A stretch of DNA of 63,771 bases, filler included, from Candidatus Nanoarchaeia archaeon (lineage in GTDB: Archaea > Nanobdellota > Nanobdellia > Woesearchaeales > DATDTY01): the NCBI GenBank assembly GCA_035290625.1. It is 4 parts of 4 records of this genome, joined end to end, with 100 filler letters (N's around TTAATTAATTAA, not from the genome) between each part and the next. Parts side by side here need not be neighbours in the genome. Positions count along the whole stretch, not along the records: positions 42,704 to 63,771 come from DATDTY010000081.1; 3 more parts are not named here. One strand, written 5' to 3'. The position numbers were made by a program, and so were the translations under genes. Below the pieces are notes generated by a model, which was not told where the DNA came from, made no database searches, and was given only the letters and a program-made list of their open reading frames with translations. Of this stretch, positions 22,552 through 62,603 are shown one piece after another; the first letter of the stretch is position 1, and every line of letters begins with the position of its first letter.

Positions 22552-22861
22552 AATCTATACTAAATCAATAAAACATATATAAATGTTGTTAAATCCGACT
22601 TTTCGCCCTAACGATAAAACTAATGTTGCCCCTTTATTCTTGTTCTTGATTGCTCACCTTGTTCGCCTGAATGAACGCCCCCGAAAAAACTCTTCGGACG
22701 AAGTTTGACCCCACGTTGTAGGGTCAAAGGAGATAACAGGAATTCCGATGTTAGCCAAAATTTTCTTACTGCCGAAAATCAGATAGGTGCTGTAGTTTTT
22801 ACTTACTTTAAACGACGAGGGGGGAATTCCGTAACGACTAGTAACGAGGTGGCGAGAAAAC

Positions 22862-46000: not shown

Positions 46001-49000
46001 TGCAGGCAATCTCAACAGCTCAGAAACTCTCACATTTATCGTTGACGAGACATCCCCCTCAGTAGCAGCCTTGAGCACCTCTGATTCTGACAACATTGTT
46101 GCTCCAACTACTGTCATCACTCTAACCGCAAACGTCTCTGATAGTAACGGGATTGCATCAGTCTTCTTCAATGACACAATCCCCATGCTTCCTGCATCAG
46201 GCAATCTTTACACTCTCCAGAACACGACATCATATTTCTGCCCTGGCATTAGCGATGGAGCATGCAAGCTGAACTTCACCGCAATTGACTATGCAGGAAA
46301 CAGGAACAGCACACAAACACTCACATTAACCGTCGATAATAGCGCCCCGGCCTCTCCAAACTTCACCCAGACACCTTCAATCGTCACTAACTCTGATAAT
46401 GTAACCCTCAACATCACCTGGACTGATGTAAATGGCATTGCTTCAGTATTGATAGAGCACAATGCAACAGGAAACTTCACAAACGCAACTGTGACAAATG
46501 TCTCTAATGTCTACTCTGCAACAATCCCCTCTTCGCTTATTGATAACCATGAAACGATTGCATGGAGATCAACAGCAAGAGACAATGCAGGAACAACAAC
46601 AACCACTTCTCTCATGTTCTTCACAGTAACCAACAGAGCTCCAAACTCAAGCTCTATCCTCCCCATCGCCTGGCAGGAAGAGACAACCACGAGCATTAAC
46701 CTCTCCATCTACTTTGCTGATTCAGATGGTGACTCCCTGATATTTAGCATAACCAATCCGCCTGAAAGAATTAATGCAGCAATCAATGGGCAGATTGTAA
46801 CCCTCACAGCGCCTTCGAACTTCTTTGGGCTTGATTACATCGTCTTTAATGCAACAGACAGCTTCCTGTCCAACCTATCCAATAATGTGACTTTGAATGT
46901 TACAGATATCAATGATGCTCCTGTTGTCTCAGCAGTATCCGATATCGCGCTCCAGGAAGACACCTCAAACACAACCCTGAACCTCAGCAGCCTTGTAAAT
47001 GACTCAGACACTCCAAAATCCAGCATCACCTGGTCCGCAACCATCATCAACAATCCAAACATCTCAGTCCTGATTAATCAAAGCACAAAGATTGCAAATA
47101 TCTCCTCTTCAAACAACTTCACTGGCACAGCAAAGCTCTTCTTCACTGCGAATGATGGGGCTGCCTCAGCAGACACCAACCTTATCACAGTCAATGTAAC
47201 GCCAATTAACGATCCTCCAACAGCCACTCTCTTGCTCAGCCCCGGCCTCAATGCCCTTGTCGGGCCAAACGTCAGCCTGACTTGGTCTCCAGCAAGCGAT
47301 ATTGATGGTGTTGTCTCATACCTCGTCGTCCTAAACGCATATCCCAATCCAAATACTACTGCAGCCCAGACGACATCGGCAGCAGCTGACATCACCAGCC
47401 TTGCTGACCAAACCTATTATTGGAGAGTCATTTCAACAGATGGAAGCCTCAATACCACGTCTGAAACACGGAATTTCACAGTCAGGCTCAATACTCCTCC
47501 AAATATCACCTCAGTCTATCCATCAACAAATCCAACGATAGCAGAAAACCAGACTCAGCGTTTCAACGCTTCCTTCAATGATAGGGAAAATAATATCATG
47601 ACTGCAAACTGGTTTGTGGACAACGTGATCCAATCTGCAGGAGCAAGCTCAGACCTTCAGCTTAACCACAGCTTCTTCAATTACGTTCCTGCATTCAATG
47701 AATCCGGCCAGCGCACCGTCAGGTTTACGGTGATAGACCAGTTTAGCCAGACAACAAACTACACATGGACCATCACAGTCTCAAACTCCAATAGAGCTCC
47801 TCTCTTCACCCACAGCCTTTCCGGCCCTGACGCAAGGGAAGACCTTCCTTACATCTTTGATATCAACTGCACAGATCCTGACAATGATTCAGTAACCTTT
47901 GCAACCACTGCGCCAGGATTCAGCATCTCCGGCGGTAACCTCACATTCATCCCAGGAAATAACAATGTTGGAACTGCTTCTGCCAACATCACCTGCTCTG
48001 ATGGAAGCCTTTCAACCCTGGGCACAGTCTCCTTCCTTGTCATCAACACCAATGATGCGCCGAACATCACGTCATTCTCGCCATCAGCCCAGAAGATCAT
48101 CCTCAACACGCTCCAATCCCAGGCATTCAGCATAACAAGCATAGACAGCGACGTCGGGGATACTGCAGGCCTTGCAACAACATGGCTTGTCAACAATGCA
48201 ACACAAGGAACCGGCTCAACCTTCAGCTTTGGCCCAACAAGCCTGGCAGGAGATTATTCCATCACAGCAAGAGTAAGGGATAACTCAAATGCAGAAGCCT
48301 CACGCGGTTGGAACCTTACTGTAAGCGTTGTTCCAAGATCAGAGAATATCAGTGGAAGCATCTTAAACCTCACTCCCCAGCAAGCCCAGGCAGCAGCCAA
48401 TATCACCATTGAAAAGCCATCTCAGGGCACTATTGATTTCAGGAACAACATCCTAAACCTCACAAATCTTGCAGCTCTTGATGAGGTCGTTAAGATCGAG
48501 CCCGGGATTATTGCCATTGACACAGACCGGGCCCCGCAACTGAACAGATCAGCCCATATCATCATGCGGGGCTTAAGCTTCACATCAACTCCAGCCATCT
48601 ACTATAACAGAGGCTTCAACCTCGGCCTCAATGACTCAAACACCCAGCGCTGCCCTGACAGCCTTTGCTCCAACATAACCTATCAGGCAGGGACACTTGA
48701 GTTTGATGTAGCGCATTTCACCACATTTTTGACAGGAAGCGAGGATCAGCCTCCTCAATTCACCACCTCTCCTCCAACCACCGCAATCATCAATACAACC
48801 GTAGTCTATGATGCAAACGCTGCCGATCCGGAAAATGCTGCAGTAGCCTACCAGCTGCTCCAGGCTCCTGAAGGGATGTCCCTCAATAATGCAACAGGCT
48901 TGATCACATGGAATGCAGCAAGCCTTGGCAGGTTCGATGTTGTCCTTCAGGCATCTGACGGATCACTCGCATCAACCCAAAGCTTTACCATACGGGTCAG

Positions 49001-50060
49001 GACTTCAACAAATCTCCTGATAAGCAACGTGGATGCAAAGGTGGACAGCAAGAGAAGCAGCAACCTGGCAGATGGAGACAGTATCAGGAGAGACGCAGAG
49101 CCTGAGTCCAAAGTAAAATTCGAGATTGAGCTTGAGAACACAGGAAACACAGAGATGCAGGACGCAGCAGCAACCATAATCCTTGAAGGCATCGATGATG
49201 GAGATGATGATGAGGAAGACACAGATTCCTTTAACCTCCAGCCAGGCAGGAAGAGGAGCGAGAGCGTTTCCTTTACCATTCCGCTTGTCGTTGATGAAGA
49301 CACCTACAGGGTTATCATCCGGGCAGAGGGCACAGAGGCGAATGGCACTCTTGCAGAAGACGAGATAGAACTTTTCCTTGACGTCAACAAGAACAAGCAT
49401 TCCCTCCAGATCAGGAATGCTGAAGCAAACCCCAATCCAGCAATCTGCGAGAAGGATGTTGAGCTCAGATTCCAGGTCATGAACCTTGGAGAGGATGATG
49501 AAGACGAGGTGAGCATTAAGGCAAGCAGCCCAGGCCTTGGATTCTTAAGGACTGAAACAGACATCTCGCTGGATGCAAACCAGGATGAGGAGAGCAGGCT
49601 CAACAGGGCCTATACCATCCCAGTCCAGGATATAGCGCCAGGATCCTATCCTATAACGATTACAAGCTTCTATGACAGCAAAGAGGAGTCCCAAAAAACC
49701 GTCCAGCTGGAGAAGGTAGAATGCGAATTCGAGCCGCTTCCAGTGAGGCCTAGCCAGCAGAGGCTTGAGCCTGTCCAGGTGATACGGACAACCACAGGCC
49801 TCCCTCCTTTGCAGACCCTGCCGGCAGCCCAGAGGCTGCAGCCAGCGGCGCAGACTAAAGCCCAGGCTCCTACAACGCAACAGCCAGGGGCCCAGCCTTC
49901 CCAGGAAAAGCCTTCAATTACAACAGTCCCGCAGCCTATCCAGGTAGATGGTTCACTGATACTAACCTTTATGATTATTGGCTTGATCGTCCTTGGAGGC
50001 CTTGCGATTTACGGTATAGGCTATCTGATTATCAAAGCTCCAAGAAGGCCGCTGTACTGA
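43092..50060 (+). CDS. Giant cell-surface glycoprotein (Ig-like repeats, lamin-tail domain, C-terminal anchor)
   Basis: Signal peptide; repeated DxAGN/DNTxP Ig units; VVISEV..EWIELYN; dense N-x-S/T; P/Q linker and terminal TM. Confidence 0.92.
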   Translation: MRQNVFKTLVSIISMIAILSFSASAWTVQLSSPQNGTNVSNNNVLFTFNTSTDAPDTLNFTLMANFTGVWLGNNTNFTNIAFPVGSTRSIGVMIPDGNYIWNINATNFSDAIDYNFSAGNFSFAMDNRPPSVSFLDPLSLANVSRTINLTIAGTDPTTGIQSLRVQNGTNGNWIPLSLSAGTKNDGNWSVLFDTASVADGSLNLRLNATDYAGNSNSSEAITITIDNTHPKIFKYNGNVVSNAIVKGNISLNVTANDTLTGIQKLNFTITDNSGERLLLAERRNDFWNASIDATTLTDGVHNVTAQAYDHAGNGPLNRVVISEVAFNGLGSDSALGNEWIELYNPTSQPVTLSNWTIDPQAAGSTNFDIANAVIPPYSAMTFSENTTWFTANFGFPPDNSDDGFGTLRDAGDTIYLKNASGGIVDSVVYGDASITGVTANDGETIIRNPVSGDTDSESDWSSNNTATPGQAANPSHITVTVDNTPPKVAAFNGAVINNADLRSGTYTINATVTDATTAANAVYFAIMNSSGSQFQTITASNEAGSFWNASFDTTTLADGTYNITAYANDSLGNLNNTERITVDIDSTPPSLSVVTPLNNSFLMSTTPEIGFNITDSLSGVNTSSISFKYRFSLLPPQFDISNVAITPIPNGFYVNGTITDFGSQGVINITVNAKDNATNAIQQFSWSFTISFNAPSIPSVTINDTDNLVRSSDTLNITLNVSSEFAPIAAVNISNATAIQLTNISTGIWAANFTPNNLSCSADGACAVHITVIDAAGNINSSESFSLTIDNTLPSVTNLLISDIDNITRSQDVVTFNVTVTDAHFSSGKVTLGNASLLTLRNNTPTVWNITTPVSSFDCTQTDGPCILTLAVEDDAGNINRSERIAWQIDDAAPRVFNITTNDSNNIVKSTETINISVNITDTNAITNVSLNGTLLSKSGNRFSTVNSTSQFCPGVTNGFCQLTFNATDIAGNLNSSETLTFIVDETSPSVAALSTSDSDNIVAPTTVITLTANVSDSNGIASVFFNDTIPMLPASGNLYTLQNTTSYFCPGISDGACKLNFTAIDYAGNRNSTQTLTLTVDNSAPASPNFTQTPSIVTNSDNVTLNITWTDVNGIASVLIEHNATGNFTNATVTNVSNVYSATIPSSLIDNHETIAWRSTARDNAGTTTTTSLMFFTVTNRAPNSSSILPIAWQEETTTSINLSIYFADSDGDSLIFSITNPPERINAAINGQIVTLTAPSNFFGLDYIVFNATDSFLSNLSNNVTLNVTDINDAPVVSAVSDIALQEDTSNTTLNLSSLVNDSDTPKSSITWSATIINNPNISVLINQSTKIANISSSNNFTGTAKLFFTANDGAASADTNLITVNVTPINDPPTATLLLSPGLNALVGPNVSLTWSPASDIDGVVSYLVVLNAYPNPNTTAAQTTSAAADITSLADQTYYWRVISTDGSLNTTSETRNFTVRLNTPPNITSVYPSTNPTIAENQTQRFNASFNDRENNIMTANWFVDNVIQSAGASSDLQLNHSFFNYVPAFNESGQRTVRFTVIDQFSQTTNYTWTITVSNSNRAPLFTHSLSGPDAREDLPYIFDINCTDPDNDSVTFATTAPGFSISGGNLTFIPGNNNVGTASANITCSDGSLSTLGTVSFLVINTNDAPNITSFSPSAQKIILNTLQSQAFSITSIDSDVGDTAGLATTWLVNNATQGTGSTFSFGPTSLAGDYSITARVRDNSNAEASRGWNLTVSVVPRSENISGSILNLTPQQAQAAANITIEKPSQGTIDFRNNILNLTNLAALDEVVKIEPGIIAIDTDRAPQLNRSAHIIMRGLSFTSTPAIYYNRGFNLGLNDSNTQRCPDSLCSNITYQAGTLEFDVAHFTTFLTGSEDQPPQFTTSPPTTAIINTTVVYDANAADPENAAVAYQLLQAPEGMSLNNATGLITWNAASLGRFDVVLQASDGSLASTQSFTIRVRTSTNLLISNVDAKVDSKRSSNLADGDSIRRDAEPESKVKFEIELENTGNTEMQDAAATIILEGIDDGDDDEEDTDSFNLQPGRKRSESVSFTIPLVVDEDTYRVIIRAEGTEANGTLAEDEIELFLDVNKNKHSLQIRNAEANPNPAICEKDVELRFQVMNLGEDDEDEVSIKASSPGLGFLRTETDISLDANQDEESRLNRAYTIPVQDIAPGSYPITITSFYDSKEESQKTVQLEKVECEFEPLPVRPSQQRLEPVQVIRTTTGLPPLQTLPAAQRLQPAAQTKAQAPTTQQPGAQPSQEKPSITTVPQPIQVDGSLILTFMIIGLIVLGGLAIYGIGYLIIKAPRRPLY

Positions 50061-50132: not shown

Positions 50133-51959
50133 ATGCGATCCTTTCCAGAGCTTCTCTCGGCATACCGGTCCTTTCCTGATCCGGTCTATCTGCTCTCAGA
50201 ATACATCAGCTCCAAGAAGGCATGGCTTCGGGTCTCTGACATCAATAGGCAGATTGCGCCCTGGGTGAACCTCATACGAGAGATCATCAATTCAGCCCAG
50301 GCGTATGAGCAGCAGCTCGTGCAAAGGCTTTCCAAGGATATCCAGGAGGTTGAACAGAGCCTCTCCAGCCTCCACACGCTCAAGCCATTTGAGTCAGATT
50401 CTGACTTGCATGCAGCCTTTGCCGAAGCAGCTGCAGCTGTGGAAAAGCGCTTGGAAAGGATACGGCGTGAGATGGGCGGCAGAAAAGGGCTCATGGAGCC
50501 TGTTGACCTGAGCAAGAATTCCGTATCATCAAGCATGGATCAGGCCAAGCTCTGGCTGCAGGCTGAACTGCAAAAAAACAGGCTTTTCTCATTTCGGAGG
50601 AGGGGGCATCTCAGAGCCCAGATGATAAGCTATCTCACCCAGTTTTGCAGCCGGATTGAGAAAGAAGTGCTATTTGAGAAAGAGATAGCAGAATATCTGG
50701 CAGATATCCACAAAAAGATAAAGCTGCTCCGTGAGCTTTTCGAAAAGGCAGATATACAAGGCACAGAGAGCATGCCCGGGATATTACGGAAGGAAGAGCT
50801 GGCTATTGAGGCTCTCCTGCAGATCGAGAGAACCTATGAGTCATCAGCTGATCAGAGGATCCTTGCTCTCAAGCAGCATCTCGAAGCTGAAAGGCAGAAA
50901 TCCCTGCAGCTCAGTATGATCACAGGATACAAGCATGCGCCTTACAATCTGCACTCCCTTGTTTTTGTGCATATGACCCGTTATTTTCCAACCAAAGGCA
51001 TATTATGGACAAGAGTCTCCGGTGACTCAGGATTGAGGGATACGCTTCATTTCTCCATCAACGGTCCTGTCGGAAATGTCGACGTGGCTAACTGGGAGAA
51101 CGCACCAATTGCAGTCCTCATCCCGGGATCGGTGTTTCCTCTCAAGAGGATCAGAAACCTTGCGCGGTTTGACACCTTCATCTTTGGAAATCTTAAGATT
51201 CCTGCAGGCTCTGTAATCCTCACAACAAAGCATATTGTGGCTGAGGCTGCCAGCCATGAAAACGTGCCTGTAAGCGCATTTGCATACGCCTTTGAAAAAA
51301 ATGGCATCCTCGTTAAGGCTGAAGAGGATAACGTGAGCATTTACAGTGCGGTGCAGAAGCTGCTGGAAAACGCTGGGAGAGGGGGAATGCCGGTATACGA
51401 AGCCAGCAATGAGGAGGATACTTGGAAGCTGGCTGCTCAGCTAGGAGTGAGTTCAATCCGCCATGTGCAAACACAGGAACATGAGTATGAAGATATAAGA
51501 AGGGCCATGGATACTCTCCAAATTTTTCTCAGAAAAAAAGGAAACTGGAAGGATGGAACCTTTGACGGCAACGAAGACTTTAAGGCCGGGAATTGGGTGA
51601 GTTACGAAAGGTATTTTTCTGTGCCACCCCACGCCCTCAATTGGATGGAAACAAATTGCGGAGATCCGCTCTATCGAAGAGTCTGCAGCCTGATGCTCCA
51701 GATGCTGACAGACACATTAAAGCTGCTCGAATTTGCAGTTGGGACGATACGATTGTGCATCGAGAAGGGTCCGATAAGCCTGGATAAGAAAAGAATGTTT
51801 GTGGATGTGCTCGGTGCAGTGTATGAAGGAGTTTCCCAAGCAAAGGTTGGGTATGCTCTCTACGCATTTTCTCCAAATGCAGCGAAAAATGTTGATGAAT
51901 TAATTGAGAAAATCAAGCGGCATTTTGAGATATGCCGTGAGCATCTAAACAGACGGTAG
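50133..51959 (+). CDS. Hypothetical protein (helical N-terminus, globular centre)
   Basis: 608-aa ORF after a TTTAAA box; central VHMTRYFP..RDTLHFSINGPV block. Confidence 0.75.
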   Translation: MRSFPELLSAYRSFPDPVYLLSEYISSKKAWLRVSDINRQIAPWVNLIREIINSAQAYEQQLVQRLSKDIQEVEQSLSSLHTLKPFESDSDLHAAFAEAAAAVEKRLERIRREMGGRKGLMEPVDLSKNSVSSSMDQAKLWLQAELQKNRLFSFRRRGHLRAQMISYLTQFCSRIEKEVLFEKEIAEYLADIHKKIKLLRELFEKADIQGTESMPGILRKEELAIEALLQIERTYESSADQRILALKQHLEAERQKSLQLSMITGYKHAPYNLHSLVFVHMTRYFPTKGILWTRVSGDSGLRDTLHFSINGPVGNVDVANWENAPIAVLIPGSVFPLKRIRNLARFDTFIFGNLKIPAGSVILTTKHIVAEAASHENVPVSAFAYAFEKNGILVKAEEDNVSIYSAVQKLLENAGRGGMPVYEASNEEDTWKLAAQLGVSSIRHVQTQEHEYEDIRRAMDTLQIFLRKKGNWKDGTFDGNEDFKAGNWVSYERYFSVPPHALNWMETNCGDPLYRRVCSLMLQMLTDTLKLLEFAVGTIRLCIEKGPISLDKKRMFVDVLGAVYEGVSQAKVGYALYAFSPNAAKNVDELIEKIKRHFEICREHLNRR

Positions 51960-52011
51960 GGAAGTCATCTTATGCCAATACATTTTAAAAGCCAGCCATC
52001 TTCAAATCCCC

Positions 52012-53217
52012 ATGACTCCTCTTAGAACCCTCCAGGAAGGCTCTGCATCCCTCCTTGTCCCAAAAGCAGAAAAGATATCCAGGAAGATGCAAGTATTCTA
52101 CAATCCGGTCATGAAGCTGAACCGGGACATCACGATTCTGCTGCTGAAGCAATTTCCTCCTCTCCATCTCTGTGATCCCTTGGCAGGCACGGGAGTAAGG
52201 TCTATCCGCTTTGCTCAGGAGCTGCAATACAAGTCAATTACAGCAAATGATATCGGAGAGAGTGCATTTCAACTCATAAAGAAAAATATGAATCTCAACA
52301 ATGTAAGCTTTAGTGTGGAGAATAAAGACGCAGCTCTTCTCTTACTGCAATCTAAAGGCTTTGACTACATCGATCTTGATGTTTTTGGCTCTCCAAACTT
52401 CCTTCTGGATTCGTCAATCAAAAGGCTTTCAAGAACAGGCATACTTGCCGTAACTGCAACAGACACAGCTCCGTTGGCAGGCACGTATCCAAAAGCATGC
52501 ATGAGGAAGTATTGGGCTGTTCCAAAAAAAGATTCAAATATGCATGAAACCGGCATCAGGATCCTGATCAGGAAGGCCCAGCTTATCGGAGCGCAATATG
52601 ACAAGGCATTACTTCCCATTTTCTCCTATTTCAAAGACCACTATTACCGTGTGTTCTTCAGGGTTGAGAAAGCAAAAAAAGAAGTTGATCTTCTTCTGAA
52701 GCAGCACGGCATGCATGGAGCAGCAGGCCCGCTCTGGCTTGGAAATCTTTGGGATTCAAGGCTCACAGCGAAGATGGCCAAAACCGTATTAAAAGAAATC
52801 GAGAAAGACATTAAAAATGCCCAATTGAACAAAAAATTAAAAATAAATAAAAAAGAAACAACCAATGATATATCAGTACGTAAAGATAAAGAACGTGGAA
52901 ATGAGCTATTAATAAACAATGATAGTATTGAAAGCAAAAATATCCTTCCAAACCATAAAAAAGATAAAAATGGGATCCTCGGGCTGCTAAAATGCATCAG
53001 CAATGAATCAAAAATACAGGCAGTCGGCTTCCATCACCTTCCTTCAATCTGCAGGAAATACAAGCTGAGCATCCCAAAAAGAGAAATTCTCTTAAAAGAA
53101 TTAAACAAGAGCCATAAAGCCGCAGAGACTCATTTCACTCCAGAAGGCATCAGAAGCAGCCATACGGAGGAGGAGATAAAGAACTTTATAAGACGGAGGC
53201 CTCAGAGAAATATGTAA
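52012..53217 (+). CDS. trm1: tRNA (guanine-26-N2)-dimethyltransferase
   Basis: VFYNPVMKLNRD, LAGTGVRSIR, FDYIDLD, VTATD, HETGIRILI, GPLWLG, THF. Confidence 0.93.
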   Translation: MTPLRTLQEGSASLLVPKAEKISRKMQVFYNPVMKLNRDITILLLKQFPPLHLCDPLAGTGVRSIRFAQELQYKSITANDIGESAFQLIKKNMNLNNVSFSVENKDAALLLLQSKGFDYIDLDVFGSPNFLLDSSIKRLSRTGILAVTATDTAPLAGTYPKACMRKYWAVPKKDSNMHETGIRILIRKAQLIGAQYDKALLPIFSYFKDHYYRVFFRVEKAKKEVDLLLKQHGMHGAAGPLWLGNLWDSRLTAKMAKTVLKEIEKDIKNAQLNKKLKINKKETTNDISVRKDKERGNELLINNDSIESKNILPNHKKDKNGILGLLKCISNESKIQAVGFHHLPSICRKYKLSIPKREILLKELNKSHKAAETHFTPEGIRSSHTEEEIKNFIRRRPQRNM

Positions 53218-53252
53218 CCATCTTTATATAGGTGGTACATATAAGGGCAGAC

Positions 53253-54881
53253 ATGAACAAGCTGATTATGGTTTTAGGTATATTTGTTATAATCCTTCCC
53301 ATAATCTCTGGTCAAATAGCTGAATGTGATGATCAGGAAAAAGGGTGGCAGATTCAGAAATGTTATAGTGACAAAGCAATTGAACTTAACAAAAGAGAAT
53401 TATGTGATTTCGCAGGAGACTATAAAGGAACCTGTTATTATAAACTTGCAGTAGACGAATCCAATCCTAACGTGTGTGAATCAGCAGAAGGATTCAAAAG
53501 GACTTGCTATAACGAATTGGCTCTTACTCTTAGAGATGAAAAGCTATGCGAACAGGCCGGCTCCCTTGAACAAGAGTGTTATTTTGAACTTGCAATGGAT
53601 TTGCAAGAGGGGTCTTTATGCGAGAAAACAAAGGGGGATGAATGCTGGATTCAACTGGCTATTCTAACAAAGAACGAATCCTTATGTTCTGTTCCAAAAA
53701 ATACGGAAGAATGCTTTTGGAGGCTGTATGAATCTACGGGTGATAAAGGGCTTTGCCAGTTCTTAGATGCAAAGAGAGAGGAATGTTTATGTAAGAATGA
53801 TGAGTACTTGAATGCAGACACGTGTGTAAGATTAGAGTGTAAGAAAAAAGAAACGGCGCAGAACCACCAATGTGTAGAAATTCAAGAGTCTAATGATTAC
53901 ATATGCGTTTTAGAGTGGAATTCCAGAATAACTGGTGAACCCATTGAGAGGTGGTGCGGGTCAGTTACTATAACCGAATATATCGGATCACTTCTTGTGG
54001 TTATTGCCGGAATTGCATTATTATCTGCGGTGACAGAGACTGGAAAGTCCAGTAGGGGGTATAAGAGGCTCAAGGAAAGGTTCGTAAGAAGCCAACTTCT
54101 GTATCAGGCTGCGCGCGCAGTTTTTTTAAACGGATTAATTGCTAGCCTCCTCGTCAGCATTTTAATGATATATGCCATGTCCCGATCTCCATATTATGGA
54201 ATCTATGTTTGGGGAGAGTATGGTGGATCTTTTATTCGGGGTTTTTTCATAATCTTTTTGACTGGGCTCATTGTCTTCGCTTTGAACAAACTGATTAAGA
54301 ATAAGTATGTAAAATCGTCAGGTATAGGTGCAATTACAGGTATTGCTTTTGGTTTTTTCTATCTTTTATTTATGACGGTATATCCTTTAGAGGATCTATT
54401 CTTCTGGGTTGAGTTTATTTATTATCCTCTGTCCTCTTGGTTGTATTCATCAGGGCTTATTGAATGCGGGAAGGGTCACCCTGATTTGTGCGAGATTATC
54501 TATTACATACCGGTTTTTGTGAGTAATACGATGATAGGGATCATTTTAGGGTTAGGGGCAAGTTTCTTTTCAAAGATAGTGGATATAACGTCATGGAAAA
54601 ACAGGATCCCGGAGATGGTTAGGAGAACTATTCGCGAACTAACCTTGACCGTGCTGTTCTTTTACATAATAATCCGGATATCGAGCGTGTTAGGAATTCC
54701 TAATAGAATGTTAAATGTCTTTTTTGCAAACCTGGTGGCTCCTTTAATCTTATTAGATCTATCATATTTTGGTGAGCACCTAAAAGGGTGGCATATGCTA
54801 GTCATCTCTATGATATACGTTACGCTCTTATATTCATTATGGAAGGTTACTTCTTGGAAAATTAAAGAGAGACTGGGCTAA
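53253..54881 (+). CDS. Membrane protein with extracellular Cys-rich repeats
   Basis: Signal peptide; CYxxLAxxxxxxxLC repeats; multi-TM C-terminus. Confidence 0.8.
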   Translation: MNKLIMVLGIFVIILPIISGQIAECDDQEKGWQIQKCYSDKAIELNKRELCDFAGDYKGTCYYKLAVDESNPNVCESAEGFKRTCYNELALTLRDEKLCEQAGSLEQECYFELAMDLQEGSLCEKTKGDECWIQLAILTKNESLCSVPKNTEECFWRLYESTGDKGLCQFLDAKREECLCKNDEYLNADTCVRLECKKKETAQNHQCVEIQESNDYICVLEWNSRITGEPIERWCGSVTITEYIGSLLVVIAGIALLSAVTETGKSSRGYKRLKERFVRSQLLYQAARAVFLNGLIASLLVSILMIYAMSRSPYYGIYVWGEYGGSFIRGFFIIFLTGLIVFALNKLIKNKYVKSSGIGAITGIAFGFFYLLFMTVYPLEDLFFWVEFIYYPLSSWLYSSGLIECGKGHPDLCEIIYYIPVFVSNTMIGIILGLGASFFSKIVDITSWKNRIPEMVRRTIRELTLTVLFFYIIIRISSVLGIPNRMLNVFFANLVAPLILLDLSYFGEHLKGWHMLVISMIYVTLLYSLWKVTSWKIKERLG

Positions 54882-54972
54882 GAGTTTCGGGTAGAAGAGG
54901 GGAAATCAAAAAGTATCACGAGATTCATAATCTCTCCCTACGGCATATCTGAATATCAGGAGGATCGCCCTA

Positions 54973-55248
54973 TTACCCAATCGTCCTTCTCACATCAGTA
55001 ACTTCGCATGAGGATACTGTATCAAGCTCGGCAATTGACTTCTCAAGCTCCTCAGTTGAGCCGATGTTCTCATCCATTATAAACATGAGGATTAGAGCAA
55101 CAAGGCCAAATGCGATAGGCTCCTGAATGGTCTTTCCTACCTCTCCGCCAAACTCAGAAATAAGCCGCACAGCCCTGTCTTTAATTGCATCAAGATCCAC
55201 ATCAGTTGCACGGGGCATGATCTTCAGCGTTACAACAACCGTTGCCAT
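54973..55248 (-). CDS. ef1b: Elongation factor aEF-1 beta
   Basis: VVVTLKIMP, EPIAFGLVAL, VTDVRR. Confidence 0.93.
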   Translation of the reverse strand: MATVVVTLKIMPRATDVDLDAIKDRAVRLISEFGGEVGKTIQEPIAFGLVALILMFIMDENIGSTEELEKSIAELDTVSSCEVTDVRRTIG

Positions 55249-55249
55249 C

Positions 55250-55417
55250 TTAATTCGGCCCCGCAAAGCCGCAGGCATGGCAAAGGTACTGGGCTGCCAT
55301 GCTCCTGCAGTGCGTGCATCTGATAATCTTCGTCTTGCCGCATTCAGGGCATAAGAAGTGAGTAAATCCCTCATTCGAGGTCACTTTCTTTTTGCATGAG
55401 TTGCAAATCTCTTCCAT
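55250..55417 (-). CDS. Zn-ribbon protein, DUF1610/HVO_2753-like (not in ORF track)
   Basis: CNSC, FLCPECG, IIRCTHCR, YLCHACGFAGPN; usual position upstream of ef1b. Confidence 0.9.
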   Translation of the reverse strand: MEEICNSCKKKVTSNEGFTHFLCPECGKTKIIRCTHCRSMAAQYLCHACGFAGPN

Positions 55418-55497
55418 GCGTCAGGAGAGATAACCCCTCATTTATAAATGTTGTGAGGGCGTAAGTTCGCAGCAGATACCCCCTATGCTATAGGTAT

Positions 55498-55630
55498 AAT
55501 GTGCATTGGCTGGGCCCTTTGCGAGCCGGTTAAAGATAGATCATAGCAGCGACAAGAGGGTTGGCACCTTCGGAGAATGTCGCTACCCGTTCTAATAGCG
55601 CTCGGCGAGCCTGGCCTGCCAATGCACATT
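55498..55630 (+). repeat. Structured intergenic repeat, copy 14
   Basis: AATGTGCATTGGC/GCCAATGCACATT; GC-GA-GCCG/CGGC-GA-GC; AGCGACA/TGTCGCT. Confidence 0.88.
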
Positions 55631-55633
55631 CTC

Positions 55634-55813
55634 AGGTTGCCGCCGTGCTCAAAAATGCCCTGCATTTTTGGTCGCTCCTTCGGAGCAGCTCGGCTCTTTC
55701 TGTCTTTAGCGAAGAGCGGTCCAACCAAAACGCCCGAAGGTGTTTTGATTGGACCAACCCCTCCCGCTGTGGTTCCTTTACACTATTGAGCCTCGCGAAA
55801 ATGGCGGCAACCT
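55634..55813 (-). repeat. Structured intergenic repeat, copy 15 (tail-to-tail with copy 14)
   Basis: AGGTTGCCGCC/GGCGGCAACCT; AGCGG/CCGCT; central insert and GCTCC-GAA-GGAGC module. Confidence 0.88.
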
Positions 55814-55929
55814 TTGCGATGTATAGGAGAACCTTGCAAAGCCGTAATATCTCGTAACTCCTTAGAATTGCGATTACCATTCCAGAGATACAACAAAGCT
55901 TAATAAAGAAATAATCTGTAGGGCAATAT

Positions 55930-57822
55930 ATGGGGCTGGGAATAAGCGATAGGGAGCTAGATGCAATCCTTGGAGAGCCTCCAAAAACTCCGGCAGAGAA
56001 GATACCTCTTTCTCGGAGATCCCTCTCTTTGATCAGAAAGGCCAGGCCGGATGAACAGCTTCTTGAGAGGGAAGCAGAACTCAGGCAACGGGAGTCCAGC
56101 CTCAAGGAAAAAGAGGCAATGCTTCTTGAGAAAGAAACCGAGATCGAAAGGGCTGCAAGGCTGCAGGGAAAACAGGAAGCAGCAGAGCAGAAGAAGATTG
56201 AAGCGCTGCGTGCCTCAACAGCCAGGATGCTCGAGCAAAAAGATCAGGCCATCAAAGAGGCCGAAGATCTGGAAAACCGGCGCATAGAAAAGCTAAAGTC
56301 CGAGATCGCAAAGCTTCAGGATCAAAAAAATCAAGCTATCGGAGAGGCTGAGCAGCAGAAGCAAAAGCGGCTTGAGCAGCTTCAGCAAGCTATTGTCAGG
56401 ATTCAGGAGCAAAAAAGACTGATTGATGGAGAATTGGCTGGAAAGCGGGATCTTGTTAGGAAAGCCCTTCACAGAGAGAAGGAGCAGGCTGGCCTGGAAA
56501 AGCAGCAGGAGTTTCTTCAGGCAAAGGCCAAGCAGATTGTGGAGATGAAACAGAGCCTGGATACAAAGGAATCCACTCTTTACAGGCAAGAGAAGCTGCT
56601 GAAGAGCAGAGAAGGAAAGCTTGGCAGCATTGAAGCAGCTGAAAAGAGAACGGTGGAAGCCCTCAGGAGAGAGATTGCATCACTGGAACAGAGGAAAGGG
56701 GAGTTTTTTGGAGTAAAGAGGGATATTTCGAGAGACAAGGCAAGCCTTGCTGAGAAAGAGGAAGAGATTCTGGACACTGTGAAAAGGCTTGAGAAGGACC
56801 GAAGGCTTCTTACAGAAAAAGAAAAGGAAATCATCGGGAAAGTCAATGAGCTGGAGGAGAACCGGCAGATCCTCATGAAAGAAGAGCAAAAGGCGAAGGC
56901 AAAGCTTACAGAGCTGCTCCAGAGAGGGCGCACACTTGAATCCCATGCGAAAATCGTGATGCAAAGCAAGATTGCAATTGAGGAAATGATTCCCCAAGCC
57001 CAGAGCAAGATAGAATCCTTGGCAGAAGAATGGGAGGCAGCGAAGCGAAGCATTAAGGAAGACCTTGCCTACCTCTCAAAAATAAGAAAAGGGCTGCCCT
57101 CATTCCTGCAGCAGTTCAGGGAGGAGCAGAAGAGAGAGAAAGCCAGGATTCAGACATTGGAAAGCGCTTCCAAATCCATCAGCATTGAACGGAAGGGGCT
57201 CGAAGACCAGGAGAACTCCATTGCAAAAAAATTGGCAGAGCTCCGTCAAATCAGAAATGAGCAGCGCGACAAAGAGCGGGAGCTCAGCAGCAGGGAGGAA
57301 AAGATCAGAAGGGCCCAGGAGCTTAAGGAAAATATAGGGAAACTTGTCCTGGAGCACAAGCGGGCCCAGATGAGTGTTGAAGAAGAGACCGAGAAGCTGA
57401 AGAAGATCACTGCAGAAAGCATGGCCAAGATGGGCCTGATCAAAGACCGGGAGATTGAGCTGATGAAGCGGGCAGCCAGGCTTCAGAGAAAGGAAGACTT
57501 TCTTGTGCAGAAAGAGGCAGATCTCCGCCAGCAGAAGATTCATACGCTGCATGAGGAGTTCCAAGCCATCAAAAATGAGCCTGATATCAGCTTTGAGATC
57601 GAAAAGATCCATACAGAGTATCCTCAGCATCCAAGGGTGATGGAGATGCTTCGGACTGCGCGGGGGCTGATTCGAGACGGAAGGATAGACCAGGCAAAGC
57701 AGCAGATACGGGCAATCGAGGACCTGCAGGCAACCCTGAAGCCTGAGGACAAGGCAAGGCAGAAGATTACGTATGATGTTCTGGAGCTCAAGACTGAGAT
57801 GAAGCTGGCGATGCTGCAGTAA
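55930..57822 (+). CDS. Long coiled-coil protein
   Basis: E/K/Q/R heptads over most of the length; helical C-terminal domain. Confidence 0.85.
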   Translation: MGLGISDRELDAILGEPPKTPAEKIPLSRRSLSLIRKARPDEQLLEREAELRQRESSLKEKEAMLLEKETEIERAARLQGKQEAAEQKKIEALRASTARMLEQKDQAIKEAEDLENRRIEKLKSEIAKLQDQKNQAIGEAEQQKQKRLEQLQQAIVRIQEQKRLIDGELAGKRDLVRKALHREKEQAGLEKQQEFLQAKAKQIVEMKQSLDTKESTLYRQEKLLKSREGKLGSIEAAEKRTVEALRREIASLEQRKGEFFGVKRDISRDKASLAEKEEEILDTVKRLEKDRRLLTEKEKEIIGKVNELEENRQILMKEEQKAKAKLTELLQRGRTLESHAKIVMQSKIAIEEMIPQAQSKIESLAEEWEAAKRSIKEDLAYLSKIRKGLPSFLQQFREEQKREKARIQTLESASKSISIERKGLEDQENSIAKKLAELRQIRNEQRDKERELSSREEKIRRAQELKENIGKLVLEHKRAQMSVEEETEKLKKITAESMAKMGLIKDREIELMKRAARLQRKEDFLVQKEADLRQQKIHTLHEEFQAIKNEPDISFEIEKIHTEYPQHPRVMEMLRTARGLIRDGRIDQAKQQIRAIEDLQATLKPEDKARQKITYDVLELKTEMKLAMLQ

Positions 57823-58873
57823 TAATCTTATCCTGGATCTTAAAATCAGTATTCAGGAATTTCTTGACTGTTTCAATGTTACTGAGTGTATGGGGAGTTA
57901 TCTGGGAAACCCTGATTGATCCTCCAAAAATCCCAAGAAGCGGAATGAGGTTATCAGCAAGATGCGAATCAACTGGAGCTCCTGAGCTCATCTCCCTCAA
58001 GAGAGCCTTTGCAGCCTCTTCGCCAACTGCCTCAGCCTTTCTCCCCTTCTCTCCCAGGCAGTCTGCTCCCAGCCGGATGGGTCTTCCCAGCGAGGGGTCT
58101 TCAGGATTGGAAGAATACACTGCCCACAGCGTTATTCCGGAACCTGTCGACAGCGTGTCGCAGTATTCAGCAGCAATGGAAACAGGAAATCCACGCAGGG
58201 CATGCTTTGCTGCGGTAGCCTGCCTCTCAGCAACCTCAGCCTTTTCCAAATCCTTTGACGCGTGAGAAATTCCCTGGATTGCAAACAACTTTTGCTGTTC
58301 GGTGAGGAACAATCCTCGAGTAAATTGCTTCTGGTGAAATGAGCTAAAAGAGGGATGCTCATCCAGCCGAAAAAAAGGCTTAGTCCTCAGCTCAACCCAT
58401 CCCCCTCCCTTCGGCATATACCCCCTCCGTATTCCTGAAACACTGATATCGCCGTAGGTTCGCAGATGAGGCGCAAACACCTGATTAAAATAGTCCACAG
58501 GCATGCTGAACGGAACATCAGTTCCTCCTTGGATCCGAAACCGTGTTCTCTTTCCGAAGAGCGATGGAATCAGGACAGCCTGCAGCAGCAGTGTGATGCT
58601 TCCGGCAGTTCCGATATCAATTGAGATATTTCCTCCTCTCAGCTCCTTAGGGATAAAAGTGATTCCAAGAGATCCAGGGTTAGCTCCCTCAACCTGTGCA
58701 GAGCTCAGCTTCTGGCTAGCAGCTATGGCTGCCAGATGCTGCGGCTTGAGGCCAGGCTTAGGCCTGTTCTTCCTGATGTCCTCCATGTGAAACGCTGTTT
58801 TGGTGAGCACAGACAGGGCAAGGGAAGTTCTCAGTATCTGGCCCCCTCCTTCAGCTCCGTTGATAAGCAGCAT
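57788..58873 (-). CDS. rtcA: RNA 3'-terminal phosphate cyclase
   Basis: EGGGQILRT, RPKPGLKPQH, GTAGSITLLLQ, GGTDV, VDSHLADNL. Confidence 0.96.
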   Translation of the reverse strand: MLLINGAEGGGQILRTSLALSVLTKTAFHMEDIRKNRPKPGLKPQHLAAIAASQKLSSAQVEGANPGSLGITFIPKELRGGNISIDIGTAGSITLLLQAVLIPSLFGKRTRFRIQGGTDVPFSMPVDYFNQVFAPHLRTYGDISVSGIRRGYMPKGGGWVELRTKPFFRLDEHPSFSSFHQKQFTRGLFLTEQQKLFAIQGISHASKDLEKAEVAERQATAAKHALRGFPVSIAAEYCDTLSTGSGITLWAVYSSNPEDPSLGRPIRLGADCLGEKGRKAEAVGEEAAKALLREMSSGAPVDSHLADNLIPLLGIFGGSIRVSQITPHTLSNIETVKKFLNTDFKIQDKIITAASPASSQS

Positions 58874-58937
58874 CCGGAAAAGTGAGCCGAAGAGATATAA
58901 AAAGTTATGCCACAAAGCTGCTTGCAGGTAGAAATTC

Positions 58938-59143
58938 AGCTCCATCCAAAAACCTCCTTTCAGTCGGGCTGCCAATGAAAATACTCAGGTATTTTCAAGC
59001 GCTCCTTCGGAGCGCATCGGCTCGCCTGAGCTTTCCAAGGTGCAAAGCTGGCATCCCCGTAGGGACCCCCCCCTGTCAGCTGCTCAGGGATTTGCAAAGA
59101 GGCTCGCAAAAATGATGGCAGCCTTCATTTTTTGGATGGAGCT
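58938..59143 (-). repeat. Structured intergenic repeat, copy 16
   Basis: AGCTCCATCCAAAAA outer IR as in copy 3; GC-GA-GCCT/AGGC-GA-GC; GCTGACA/TGCCAGC. Confidence 0.9.
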
Positions 59144-59188
59144 CCGTAATTCGCAACGCTTTTAAATGCGGCATTCCATCCCTCTCCT

Positions 59189-60112
59189 ATGGATCGGGAA
59201 ACAAGGCAGCATGTCATCTATGGAAGCGTATTCGCCGTAAGCATAATCCTTATCGTCTCTTTTTTCACGATTCAGATCAATGGGCTCAGGACCCAGCTCA
59301 ATGAAGGGCTGTCAAGCCTTACAGCGAAGCTCGAGAGCTCTCTATCAAAAGAAGCCTCCTTGAGAGAGCAGTCCGACGCCAAAGCGGCCAAGGACATAGA
59401 GGATCTCTCCAAATCCCTTGCCCAGAAAGAGAGCCAGATCAGCACCTTGTCAGGCGACCTTTCTTCTCTCCGGATAGAGAGCCAGCAGCAGTTCACCTCC
59501 CTGGAGGAGAACATCAAGTCAGTCAAGATAGAGAACCAGGACTTTTCAGCAATCATCGATGATGTCGTGCAGGGAGTTGTCGGAATCCGCACAGACTCCA
59601 AGCAGGGCTCTGGCTTTATTGCGGACAGCGAGGGCTACATTATCACCAATTATCATGTGATTGAGGGAGCAAGGGCTGCTGCAGTGCTTACCCATGATGG
59701 GGAAAACCATAGGGTGCGGCTCGTTGATTTCAATCCGGATGCAGATATTGCTGTCCTGAAAATAGATGGCAGCTTTGCGTCTCTGGGCTTTACAGATTCC
59801 GACGAGGTTGAGATCGGCCAAAAGGTGATTGCAGTTGGCTCTCCAGGCGGCCTTGACTTTACAGTCACGCAAGGCATCATCAGCGCCAAGAGGCAGAATG
59901 ACGGAAACAGCTACATCCAGATTGATGTTCCGATAAATCCAGGAAACTCTGGCGGGGCTCTGGTCACCATCGAAGGCAAAGTGGCAGGTGTCAATTCCCT
60001 CAAGCTTGCAGGCTTTGAAGGCGTTGGCTTTGCCCTTGCCTCAAACCAGGTGCAGGAGATCATTGAGCCGATGATTGCTGCTGACAAGGCTCGGGTTGCG
60101 CAGTTACCCTAA
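59189..60112 (+). CDS. HtrA-like trypsin serine protease (TM plus coiled coil, no PDZ)
   Basis: GSGF, ITNYHV, DIAVLK, INPGNSGG. Confidence 0.92.
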   Translation: MDRETRQHVIYGSVFAVSIILIVSFFTIQINGLRTQLNEGLSSLTAKLESSLSKEASLREQSDAKAAKDIEDLSKSLAQKESQISTLSGDLSSLRIESQQQFTSLEENIKSVKIENQDFSAIIDDVVQGVVGIRTDSKQGSGFIADSEGYIITNYHVIEGARAAAVLTHDGENHRVRLVDFNPDADIAVLKIDGSFASLGFTDSDEVEIGQKVIAVGSPGGLDFTVTQGIISAKRQNDGNSYIQIDVPINPGNSGGALVTIEGKVAGVNSLKLAGFEGVGFALASNQVQEIIEPMIAADKARVAQLP

Positions 60113-60670
60113 CTTTCTTGCTCTATCTCCCATTCTCGCTCTTTCTGATACGTTATCCCATACCCTTAGCGCTGCATTTTCCAACAGCTTCCTGCTTCCA
60201 TTGTTCTGTATCAAAAAATCAAAGCTTGAGGGCTCTGCCTGGAATTTGCGTATCCTGTCCAGGCTGCTCTTCATCCGCTTTTCAACAATCTCTTTCTTTG
60301 CGGTCACAAGAATGACAAGGTCTGAAATTTTGGAAAGCCGAAGCTCCTTATAGAGGGCAGCATCAATAACTGCAATCTTCTTCCCTGCGCTTTGCCGCTC
60401 GATCTCCAGAATCATCTGAGGATGCACAAGGCTGTTCAGAAGCCTTAAGTTCTTAGGATTGGAAAAGACCAAGTCCCCAAGCACCTTCCTGTCAATCCTT
60501 CTGCCTTTAAGGATCCTTTTCCCGAACAATCGCAGAAGCTCCTCCCTCTTCTGCTCCAGTATTTGATGGCCTATCCTGTCAGCATCAATCACGACAGCGC
60601 CCAAGCTCCTGAAAAAAGCCGCAACTGTCGTCTTCCCAACTCCTATCTTTCCGGTGACGGTAATGATCAT
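60104..60670 (-). CDS. coaE: Dephospho-CoA kinase (bacterial type)
   Basis: TGKIGVGKTT, IDADRIGH, IDRKVLGDLVF, LNSLVHP, DAAL. Confidence 0.88.
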   Translation of the reverse strand: MIITVTGKIGVGKTTVAAFFRSLGAVVIDADRIGHQILEQKREELLRLFGKRILKGRRIDRKVLGDLVFSNPKNLRLLNSLVHPQMILEIERQSAGKKIAVIDAALYKELRLSKISDLVILVTAKKEIVEKRMKSSLDRIRKFQAEPSSFDFLIQNNGSRKLLENAALRVWDNVSERARMGDRARKLG

Positions 60671-60701
60671 AGTGTCTCCATACAATGCTCTGCCCCGATT
60701 G

Positions 60702-60823
60702 AAGGCTGCCGCCTCTTTCGCGAGGCTCAGCAACCAAATATCAGCACAAGCGGAGGGGGTTGCCCCCTACGGGGCGGTGCCGCTCTTTGCTGAAACCAGC
60801 AAGAGCCGAGCCGGCGGCAACCC
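60702..60823 (+). repeat. Structured intergenic repeat, copy 17
   Basis: GGCTGCCGCC/GGCGGCAACC; GC-GA-GGCT/AGCC-GA-GC; AGCGG/CCGCT. Confidence 0.9.
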
Positions 60824-60920
60824 GAACCAAGCAAGATTTTGGACAGAGCCTCTGGACAGAGCCTCTCCGCGAAGCAAATTTATAAACCTTTTTAAAGGAG
60901 CAAGTGATTCTGCTGCGTAT

Positions 60921-61031
60921 GCCAGCGTGACAGAATCCGGCCAATGTGCTCGCCTCGAAGCTTGCGTCCTGGACGCAGTGAAGACAGCGAGTGGGCTTCG
61001 GCCCTTCCAGGTTCAAATCCTGGCGCTGGCG
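60921..61031 (+). tRNA. tRNA-Ser(CGA) with a 26-nt intron at 37/38 (60960-60985)
   Basis: Acceptor GCCAGCG/CGCTGGC; anticodon stem CTCGC/GCGAG; long variable arm GGGC-TTCG-GCCC; T arm CCAGG-TTCAAAT-CCTGG; G73; no encoded CCA. Confidence 0.9.
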
Positions 61032-61146
61032 TAACGGAGTGGAGTCCAGTGCCATGACCAGGAAATCTCTGATTTCCGCTGCCTGACGCCCAAAGAAATG
61101 TGCTCAAAGAATCCAAATGCCTGTCAGTTTTATATCTCTGGTGTCT

Positions 61147-61485
61147 CTAACTGGCCGGATTCAAATACCTCTTCACAGCCCTCTCAAAAGCTTCTCCGGC
61201 TTTCTCTGCCTGCTTAGATGTGCTTTTTGGGCTATAAACAAGGTTATGATAAAATCGAACAACCAGATGTTCATCAGCATCTGTCTCAAGGTAGATTTTT
61301 GAGTTTCCGTCCCATCTTGATCCTACTCTGTACTCCGGTGGGCTGCGCCCTTCCTTAATCCGCCTCAAAATCTCCGAGGGCGGCATTCTCATAACATCAT
61401 CGAATGGTCTCCCCCTGCCGCACTTCTCTTCATACATCCTGATTATCTCCAGAAGATGCTCTTCCTTCAAATCATCGAGTTTCAT
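61147..61485 (-). CDS. Hypothetical protein
   Basis: 112-aa ORF after a CTTATAAG box. Confidence 0.65.
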   Translation of the reverse strand: MKLDDLKEEHLLEIIRMYEEKCGRGRPFDDVMRMPPSEILRRIKEGRSPPEYRVGSRWDGNSKIYLETDADEHLVVRFYHNLVYSPKSTSKQAEKAGEAFERAVKRYLNPAS

Positions 61486-61629
61486 TCGGGCTGGTAATGC
61501 AGATTTCCTTATAAGGGTATCGCCAGCATCGCAACATCGGCGTTATGCCCTCAGTCTGTAAACATGTGGTAAGCCTCGTTTTCACACTTCGACGGCAGGT
61601 TTTTAAAGGGATCGGCGCCCCCCTCCTTA

Positions 61630-62163
61630 ATGACAGAGCCGCAACCTCTATGGGACCAATACCTAATCACAGGAAGCCCTGCAGTGTTCGGGCAGCTCTA
61701 TACACTGACGTATCCAAATGTACGAAATTACATCAGGAGAAACGCATCTTCGCAGCATGTAGAAGACCTTGTGCAGGACGTTTTCTTTAAACTCCTCTCT
61801 CACTATGGCCCCGAAAAGCCCCACCCTGCCCCTTTTAAAGTCCTCCTTATGGCAGTGAGCAGGAATACCCTCATTGACCACCAGCGCAGCCAGGCTGTAC
61901 GAAACAAGTACAGGGGAAATGGGCAAGATCCGTATTCTCTGCCAGAGCAGCGCACAAATCTCGATCTGGAAAGGGCGCTTGGCCAAGCAGGATCTGTGAG
62001 GCTGAGCAGAGACCAGCAGCCTGCATTCAGCCTCTTGCTGAATGGGCACTCTAACGAAGAGATAGCAAATGCATTAGGCAAAAGCAGTCCTGATACAAAG
62101 CAAATGGTGTACAGGATCAGGGAAAAATTGAGATCCAAACTCGATTTTGATCAATTCCTTTGA
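61630..62163 (+). CDS. ECF-type sigma-70 factor homologue
   Basis: Region 2 FGQLY..VRNYI..VEDLVQDVFFKL..FKVLLMAVSRNTLIDHQR; region 4 LSRDQQPAFSL..GHSNEEIANALGKS..TKQMVYRIREKLR. Confidence 0.88.
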   Translation: MTEPQPLWDQYLITGSPAVFGQLYTLTYPNVRNYIRRNASSQHVEDLVQDVFFKLLSHYGPEKPHPAPFKVLLMAVSRNTLIDHQRSQAVRNKYRGNGQDPYSLPEQRTNLDLERALGQAGSVRLSRDQQPAFSLLLNGHSNEEIANALGKSSPDTKQMVYRIREKLRSKLDFDQFL

Positions 62164-62174
62164 GAACTGTAGCC

Positions 62175-62330
62175 CTATTCCTTCTGCTCAAACTCAAATC
62201 CGCAGCCCGGGCATTTGTATCTCGTCGGAGAAATGAGCTTCATACGCTTGTGGCAGGTATAGCAGTATAACGGGACATCTAGGTGGATCCCGACTTCATC
62301 CAGCTGTACATCGACGCCGTTATCCTCCAT
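62175..62330 (-). CDS. 51-aa zinc-ribbon protein (not in ORF track)
   Basis: MEDNGVDVQLDEVGIHLDVPLYCYTCHKRMKLISPTRYKCPGCGFEFEQKE; GGGTGG SD and TTTAAAAA box. Confidence 0.7.
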   Translation of the reverse strand: MEDNGVDVQLDEVGIHLDVPLYCYTCHKRMKLISPTRYKCPGCGFEFEQKE

Positions 62331-62407
62331 GATTCCACCCAAGAATTGACTACACCGCCAACTCAGCTGCAGAGGTTCCGTATCTTTTTAAATGTTATGC
62401 AAAACTG

Positions 62408-62603
62408 GGCTTCCCTGAAAATGTAGTTGCCGTCAATCTGCGAGGCTCTGAACTCAAATCAGTACCCCGACAAGGGGGTTGTCCCATACGGGGAATGTCT
62501 GTCATCCCTATCACTTTCGCAGCCGAGCCGACGTGCTCCGAAGGAGCGCCCGGAAATGTTTGGCATTTCCGATGGCAACCTTGAAAAGATTTTCACCGGA
62601 GCC
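62408..62603 (+). repeat. Structured intergenic repeat, copy 18
   Basis: GTTGCCGTC/GATGGCAAC; GC-GA-GGCT/AGCC-GA-GC; GACA/TGTC; GCTCC-GAA-GGAGC. Confidence 0.88.

Follow-up and report, generated by a model that had tools for sequence, protein, structure and literature searches.

Organization of the Locus

The window (i.e., the whole stretch of DNA analyzed, 63,771 nt) consists of four contigs joined end to end, of which contig C81 (window 42704–63771) carries a gene for a homolog of the bacterial sigma-70 factors, P0001. The host is a Woesearchaeote, a small groundwater archaeon, whose genome is rated 100% complete and comprises 84 contigs. The features at the locus are as follows.

60687..60826, no strand assigned: dispersed structured repeat of the left flank, one of about 229 in the genome
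60920..61032, plus strand: tRNA-Ser(CGA) with a 26-nt intron (ARAGORN)
61147..61485, minus strand: putative divergent 112-aa ORF with its own TATA-like box (about 61509–61516)
61600..61607, plus strand: archaeal TATA box TTTTTAAA, at the modal native spacing
61630..62163, plus strand: ECF-type (group 4) sigma-70 homolog, P0001 (ORF, profile matches, predicted fold)
61642..61911, plus strand: sigma2 domain, residues 5–94, four predicted helices (AlphaFold2, alignment)
61813..61815, plus strand: E62, at the position of sigmaE F64 in the −10 base pocket (alignment)
61843..61845, plus strand: L72, at the position of sigmaE W73 in the −10 base pocket (alignment)
61942..62139, plus strand: sigma4 domain with helix-turn-helix, residues 105–170 (AlphaFold2, alignment)
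62175..62342, minus strand: convergent 55-aa zinc-ribbon-like ORF (CxxC/CxxC), with only sub-threshold family matches
62407..62599, no strand assigned: dispersed repeat of the right flank, inside which two assemblies diverge (assembly comparison)

As claimed in an earlier note on this DNA, the ORF at 61630–62163 on the plus strand is intact (177 aa, 0 internal stops) and contains the sigma motifs quoted there, no anti-sigma gene is adjacent to it, and a tRNA-Ser gene lies about 600 nt away (598 nt upstream), with structured elements on both sides (repeats at 60687–60826 and 62407–62599). Neither neighboring gene matches any family above cut-off, and zf-HC2, the one anti-sigma family tested, is matched nowhere in the genome. 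The divergent 112-aa ORF was considered as an anti-sigma factor or partner and was rejected: it has no family and no usable Atlas match, only 3 of the 300 other order genomes encode a homolog, and a sigma gene stands beside none of the three homologous loci fetched.

ARAGORN called the tRNA-Ser(CGA) only once intron search was switched on and the threshold relaxed; with the default settings, and in Rfam at the gathering score, the gene is overlooked. An integrated element at this tRNA was rejected because the tRNA 3′ end has no second copy in the genome (i.e., no att site) and because the GC content and codon usage match those of the host. A viral or plasmid origin of the sigma gene was also rejected, as only weak matches were found. 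The left repeat folds better than shuffled sequences (z −2.8) and the right repeat barely better (z −1.6). Such elements are spaced about 6 kb apart on average, 56 of the 677 genes with an element on each side have both of them within 1 kb, and the six other sigma genes of the genome are not flanked in the way the P0001 gene is; a special tie between the sigma gene and the repeats was therefore rejected. Given the lack of an att duplication and the density of the elements, the tRNA-Ser and the flanking repeats appear incidental.

Next to the tRNA, window 60104–60670 encodes a bacterial-type dephospho-CoA kinase CoaE (TIGR00152, above cut-off), and window 43092–50060 encodes a 2322-aa surface-type protein with bacterial Ig-like, lamin-tail and cadherin-like domains. 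Window 19000–23000, on contig C75, is low in GC (32–34% vs. about 47%).

Integrity of the Assembly

That the sigma gene stems from an assembly chimera or from misbinned bacterial DNA is extremely improbable. A second assembly, L041, equals window 51630–62581 at 99.99% identity and includes trm1, ef1b, rtcA, the tRNA and the sigma gene. A single contig of run X4 covers 59987–62436, with the intron-bearing tRNA and the sigma gene, at 0 differences, and a contig of run X5 covers 60782–62436; none of the four runs compared is flagged as a possible source of the assembly, though they may stem from one sampling campaign. Other assemblies thus link the sigma gene to archaeal genes, and the chimeric join that the earlier note had named as a possible refutation is itself refuted for the upstream side of the sigma gene. 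The identical P0001 protein was found on 20 contigs from several sources, the sole variant differing by one residue, and the archaeal TATA box and native codon usage described below argue against misbinned DNA.

Directly downstream of the sigma gene, however, the two assemblies disagree inside the right-hand repeat, where L041 runs on into contig C2 and not into sppA and eif1a, and 62436–62543 is bridged by no listed piece from the four runs. The link to eif1a is therefore unconfirmed. Thus, of the genes said in the earlier note to share a contig with the sigma gene, trm1, aEF-1beta and rtcA stand, each confirmed by HMM, but the eif1a join differs between assemblies. The continuations on C81 and C2 belong to one and the same bin, and the crossover between them inside the repeat reflects either an assembly misjoin or a true rearrangement. 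Contig C44 carries another copy of sppA and eif1a, 95–98% identical.

Promoter and Residence in the Genome

Matches to TTWWAW in this genome peak 29–30 nt ahead of start codons, with 137 matches at −29. Among the 773 genes with an upstream gap, 284 have a match within −36 to −24, compared to 57 in a control window. The match of the sigma gene begins at −29/−28, the modal position of the genome, which bears out the earlier observation that the TATA-like box is placed as for native genes. The 3′ end of TTTTTAAA lies 22 nt ahead of the ATG, and of the two upstream BRE-type A positions only one is matched. The transcript would be near-leaderless, and the sigma gene is probably expressed.

In codon usage the sigma gene ranks at the 53rd percentile among 926 genes, and its GC3 is average for the host genome. 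Given this native codon usage and that the nearest relatives are no more than 37–40% identical, the reading frame and fold have presumably long been kept. We infer that the gene is derived from bacteria and has long resided, under some selection, behind an archaeal TATA box.

Class Assignment and Relatives

P0001 matches the sigma-70 superfamily model TIGR02937 at 60.8 bits (cut-off 42.9), with no subfamily model above cut-off among the best 25 models listed. In the HMM check proposed in the earlier note, Sigma70_r2 scores 30.9 (cut-off 24) and Sigma70_r4_2 scores 25.5, just 0.2 bit short of its cut-off of 25.7; Sigma70_ECF scores 24.7 (cut-off 21.1), and region 3 is unmatched in the Pfam search. 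By profile search sigma2 and sigma4 are thus present and sigma3 is absent, which is the domain content that defines ECF (group 4) sigma factors (PMC7826278).

The AlphaFold2 model of P0001, built on a 146-row alignment, has a mean pLDDT of 86.9 and shows four helices followed by a low-confidence linker and a four-helix, helix-turn-helix domain. Foldseek ranks ECF structures first (CnrH, sigmaE, SigW and others), and the TM scores against isolated sigma2 domains are 0.80–0.81. The structure check suggested earlier has therefore come out in favor of a sigma2/sigma4 fold, the absence of which had been named as a ground for refutation. The gene is a real, native-looking ECF-type sigma homolog in an archaeon. 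The N-terminus of P0001 is not hydrophobic, and neither a signal peptide nor a membrane segment was found in the protein.

Relatives of P0001 are distant. Among the best 150 matches from 1.84 billion representatives, identity reaches at most 37–40%; the best E-value is 1e-9, at 33–37% identity, and full-length identity to any relative is about 37% at most. None of 40 genomes of the order has a relative at E ≤ 0.001, and 4 of 400 genomes of the class have matches, which are weak (26–28% identity).

In two quick trees, P0001 grouped with thin support with database matches, apart from most archaeal ECFs. One of the two, a 35-row tree, sets P0001 apart from the other Woesearchaeales ECF-size genes (SH-aLRT 98); it omits most matches as well as 10 of the 25 archaeal rows, which had long branches or a doubtful context. 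The trees are star-like, and a single archaeal ECF clade is not rejected by the AU test (p = 0.092). The P0001 gene was likely acquired separately.

Residues Retained and Lost

The matches used for the residue comparisons were picked by likeness to P0001, so that residues scored as kept are inflated and those scored as lost are conservative. Alignment to E. coli sigmaE places E62 and L72 of P0001 at the positions of F64 and W73, which form the −10 base pocket. Among the 86 relatives with equal D46–N79 spacing, the E62 site is aromatic in 81 and the L72 site in 85, and none lacks both aromatics; across all 148 matches of the gapped alignment, both are missing in 5. The −10 pocket class score of P0001 is below those of all 148 aligned matches. 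Of the 25 other ECF-size genes aligned from the order, 24 carry W or Y at the pocket tryptophan site, so the loss is specific to P0001.

Other surfaces are retained in the alignment. In the region 2.2 helix, D46, Q49, D50 and F52 correspond to D48, Q51, E52 and F54 of sigmaE, and the region 2.2 class score is at the 66th percentile of matches, with the hydrophobic core score at the 53rd. Which of the region 2.2 residues touch the beta-prime clamp we carry over from sigma70, as an assumption. The melting wedge asparagine (sigmaE N80) is N79, and R86 in sigma2 and R162 in sigma4 are also kept. The available text of PMC6648896 describes the contact of region 2.2 with the beta-prime clamp in general terms. 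At the sigmaE specificity positions K56, N80, N84, R171 and F175, as given in the portion available of a preprint (bioRxiv 10.1101/2020.06.23.168245), P0001 has K54, N79, D83, K157 and Y161.

On the sigma4 surface facing the flap-tip helix, at the contact position I135 of sigmaE (PMC6648896, in the part available), P0001 has S122, and serine occurs there in none of the 148 matches. L137, L167 and L171 are kept, S122 and G118 are polar or small, and this surface scores at the 16th percentile, with a register uncertain by one residue. The recognition helix starts with P154 and D155, which are rare (8 and 2 of 148, respectively). What is new about P0001, as read from these alignments, is that the two aromatics of the −10 pocket are gone and the other surfaces are kept.

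Sigma-70 Genes of the Host and Its Order

For the host polymerase there is a single Rpb1-type match and a single Rpb2-type match, each of them archaeal. No bacterial RNA polymerase core genes were found in the host genome, nor any match to alpha-CTD or the DksA-type zinc finger. The nearest named relatives of the host Rpo1N clamp are mostly Woesearchaeota or Nanoarchaeota, with some other depositor labels. TBP and TFB are present, and so, in this small genome, are two TFE-like genes above the Pfam cut-off (C18:4691–4999 and C27:6751–6996).

Seven sigma region 2 matches are found in the host genome: P0001 and six RpoD-like ORFs of 447–618 aa, amid archaeal-looking genes. RpoD-like ORFs with a sigma-70 match include the following.

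C31:12297–15090
C28:14859–16715
C70:1–1556
C9:5127–6716
C33:84871–86700

The region 2.2 motif is present in all six and the tryptophan pair in most; the paralog on C33 has a weak extra helix-turn-helix match.

Across the order, TIGR02937 is matched above cut-off in 116 of 301 genomes, a tally that takes in nine unpublished genomes. An alpha-CTD match occurs in 9 of the 301, so contamination is no explanation of the sigma-70 frequency. The 25 ECF-size genes aligned from the order each occur singly and at differing loci, with no common neighborhood among them. In genomes of the order or the class, sigma matches on seemingly misbinned bacterial or phage contigs were also observed (L010 [G014:C67], L208 [G365:C1], L063 and L068), and in L208 the ECF gene adjoins an anti-sigma-like gene.

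Four of the six alpha-CTD loci fetched in the order encode fusions of sigma4 and alpha-CTD without a region 2 match, on archaeal-looking contigs (L211:1471–2562, L212:574–1725, L213:277–1713 and L216:517–1710); L214 carries alpha-CTD by itself. Sigma DNA-binding modules have thus been reused in the order with the core-binding domain absent.

Relation to Known Systems

The presence of a bacterial ECF sigma factor homolog in an archaeon is less surprising than the earlier note had held, since such genes form a published class (PMC8204110), occur in about 39% of the genomes of the order and account for seven matches in the host genome. In the available text of that study, sigma-70 genes are reported as prevalent in Woesearchaeota, with misbinning ruled out, no anti-sigma factor and the mechanism left open (Castelle 2021, PMC8204110). 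The family fam00359 occurs in 39% of 196 Woesearchaeota and has signalP and TMHMM values of 0.0 (PMC8204110, entries of Table S3), an incidence comparable to the 116 of 301 order genomes here. P0001 fits the description of the DPANN sigma-70 genes in its genuine Woesearchaeota context and lack of a signal peptide. From what is available on fam00359, the two share the host group, the sigma-70 family, the lack of an anti-sigma factor and the lack of a signal peptide or membrane segment. They differ in that fam00359 mainly carries the primary sigma label (K03086) and has a median length of 280 aa, whereas P0001 is a 177-aa ECF with its pocket aromatics lost. The P0001 gene joins this published, still unexplained class of DPANN sigma-70 genes.

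P0001 resembles bacterial ECFs (E. coli sigmaE, M. tuberculosis SigL, BldN, CnrH and SigW) in consisting of sigma2, linker and sigma4 without sigma3, in its predicted fold, and in keeping the region 2.2 helix, the wedge asparagine and most specificity positions. In contrast to them, it has a TATA promoter and no adjacent anti-sigma gene in a host where no bacterial core was found, its F64/W73 equivalents are E and L, and its full-length identity stays at about 37% or below. Archaea are absent from the main text of the ECF reclassification (PMC7826278). Phage-encoded sigma factors, as described in the part available of PMC9429907, are similar in that the carrier genome lacks a bacterial core, and phage ECF-like proteins are among the structural matches of P0001; the P0001 gene, however, resides in the chromosome of a cellular archaeon without an att site, and its phage matches are weak (25–26% identity).

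The role of sigma-70 genes in archaea without bacterial RNA polymerase has been an open question since 2021 and concerns about 39% of Woesearchaeales genomes; a literature search covering few subscription journals found no functional test of woesearchaeal sigma-70 genes. Given its small size, predicted solubility and natural lack of the melting pocket, P0001 is a cheap test case.

Possible Functions of P0001

The two functions proposed in the earlier note, a repurposed DNA-binding regulator and a factor acting on the polymerase of a bacterial partner, are also the two leading candidate explanations here; the lost pocket and the lack of an export signal make us lean to the former. Given that both promoter-opening aromatics are lost, P0001 may be a plain regulator that binds double-stranded DNA in the archaeal cell free of core polymerase, a prediction that we favor tentatively, at something short of an even chance. 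The sigma4 helix-turn-helix would bind duplex DNA with the region 2.4 helix of sigma2 assisting, and P0001 would occupy sites (repression or silencing) rather than start transcription. Consistent with such a role are the retention of duplex-reading residues next to the loss of the −10 pocket aromatics, the single archaeal-type polymerase of the genome, the lack of an export signal on P0001, its S122 at the flap-tip contact position, and, elsewhere in the order, the sigma4 and alpha-CTD fusions that have no sigma2 match. If it is true, a sigma factor has been turned into an ordinary regulator.

Several observations argue against core-free binding. Free ECF sigma factors are usually poor promoter binders without core, and the rare P154 and D155 in the recognition helix may weaken DNA binding. 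The region 2.2 core-binding helix is kept, though unneeded in that role. The family as a whole, moreover, resembles working sigma factors, as the pocket tryptophan is kept in most other ECF-size genes of the order, and the motifs for core binding and melting in the six RpoD-like paralogs. In sigmaE, alanine mutants of F64 and W73 merely slow open-complex formation and do not abolish melting (PMC6648896, in the text available). No target or binding site of P0001 was found in the host genome, and an ECF-type motif is not enriched upstream of host genes (15 vs. 21.6 in shuffles). A TGTAAAC...CGT pair lies upstream of the sigma gene itself, with a 13-nt spacer compared to 16–18 in the available portion of the Todor preprint.

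The lost pocket could also be the early decay of a relic, i.e., an old horizontal acquisition drifting under weak selection. The scarcity of relatives in the order and the class, the several rare substitutions in P0001 and the lack of a common neighborhood among the 25 ECF-size loci point in this direction, but the frame is intact, the TATA box stands at the modal position, the codons are ameliorated, the fold is predicted with confidence (pLDDT 86.9) and the hydrophobic core is at the 53rd percentile, and we consider decay unlikely.

P0001 might instead work on the polymerase of the archaeon itself through the clamp coiled coil, where it would serve as an alternative initiation factor or compete with TFE and Spt4/5. 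The clamp coiled coils of bacteria and archaea are homologous, and P0001 has kept its core-binding helix. The host clamp helices, however, are of the ordinary archaeal type, near those of solved archaeal RNA polymerases, with a net charge of −6 compared to +1 in E. coli beta-prime 260–309. R275, R293, E295, K296 and R297 of E. coli beta-prime are replaced by I, E, L, W and D, respectively, and the same residues occur in 80 of 80 close relatives, which is partly an artefact of the search patterns. Nor are TTGACA/TATAAT promoters enriched upstream of host genes (60 vs. 52.2 ± 7.8). Given the archaeal-type clamp and the lack of sigma promoter enrichment, action on the host's own polymerase is very unlikely. 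When P0001 was modeled in a single job together with the clamps of E. coli beta-prime and of host Rpo1N, the predicted complex scored 0.20 (mark 0.32; controls not folded), which counts neither for nor against binding.

The second of the two leading explanations is that P0001 acts in trans on the RNA polymerase of a bacterial partner or prey, to be delivered by cell contact and to dock on the beta-prime clamp, where it would redirect transcription or, for want of the melting pocket, tie up the core as a decoy in the manner of phage sigma factors. Bacterial hosts or prey have been proposed for Woesearchaeota (PMC8204110, PMC9723730 and PMC12352652, in their available text). The kept region 2.2 helix and the family-wide retention of core-binding and melting motifs are consistent with such action, as are two lytic transglycosylase (SLT) genes in the genome.

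C13:1743–4115 and
C72:15422–16162: lytic transglycosylase (SLT) genes, one of them 790 aa with a hydrophobic, signal-like N-terminus

Of the 301 order genomes, 159 have an SLT match, but such matches are not enriched in sigma carriers (58/114 vs. 101/186, tallied by eye; Fisher p = 0.63, with kin not independent), and a co-occurrence of sigma and lytic transglycosylase genes across the order genomes was therefore rejected. With no signal peptide or membrane segment on P0001 and no known delivery route or host, action on a bacterial polymerase is a doubtful possibility; if it were true, it would provide the first direct evidence that an archaeon manipulates transcription in bacteria. A more specific version is that P0001 is sent into a bacterial host and docks on its polymerase but cannot open promoters, a decoy sigma that shuts down or steers transcription, with the RpoD-like paralogs as its activating counterparts; this we regard as quite unlikely.

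Also in line with action on a bacterial polymerase is the dN/dS between the RpoD-like paralogs on C28 and C70, which is 0.33 overall and 0.09 in region 2. These two share a common neighbor gene, at 74.6% nucleotide identity, and C70 may come from a sister population.
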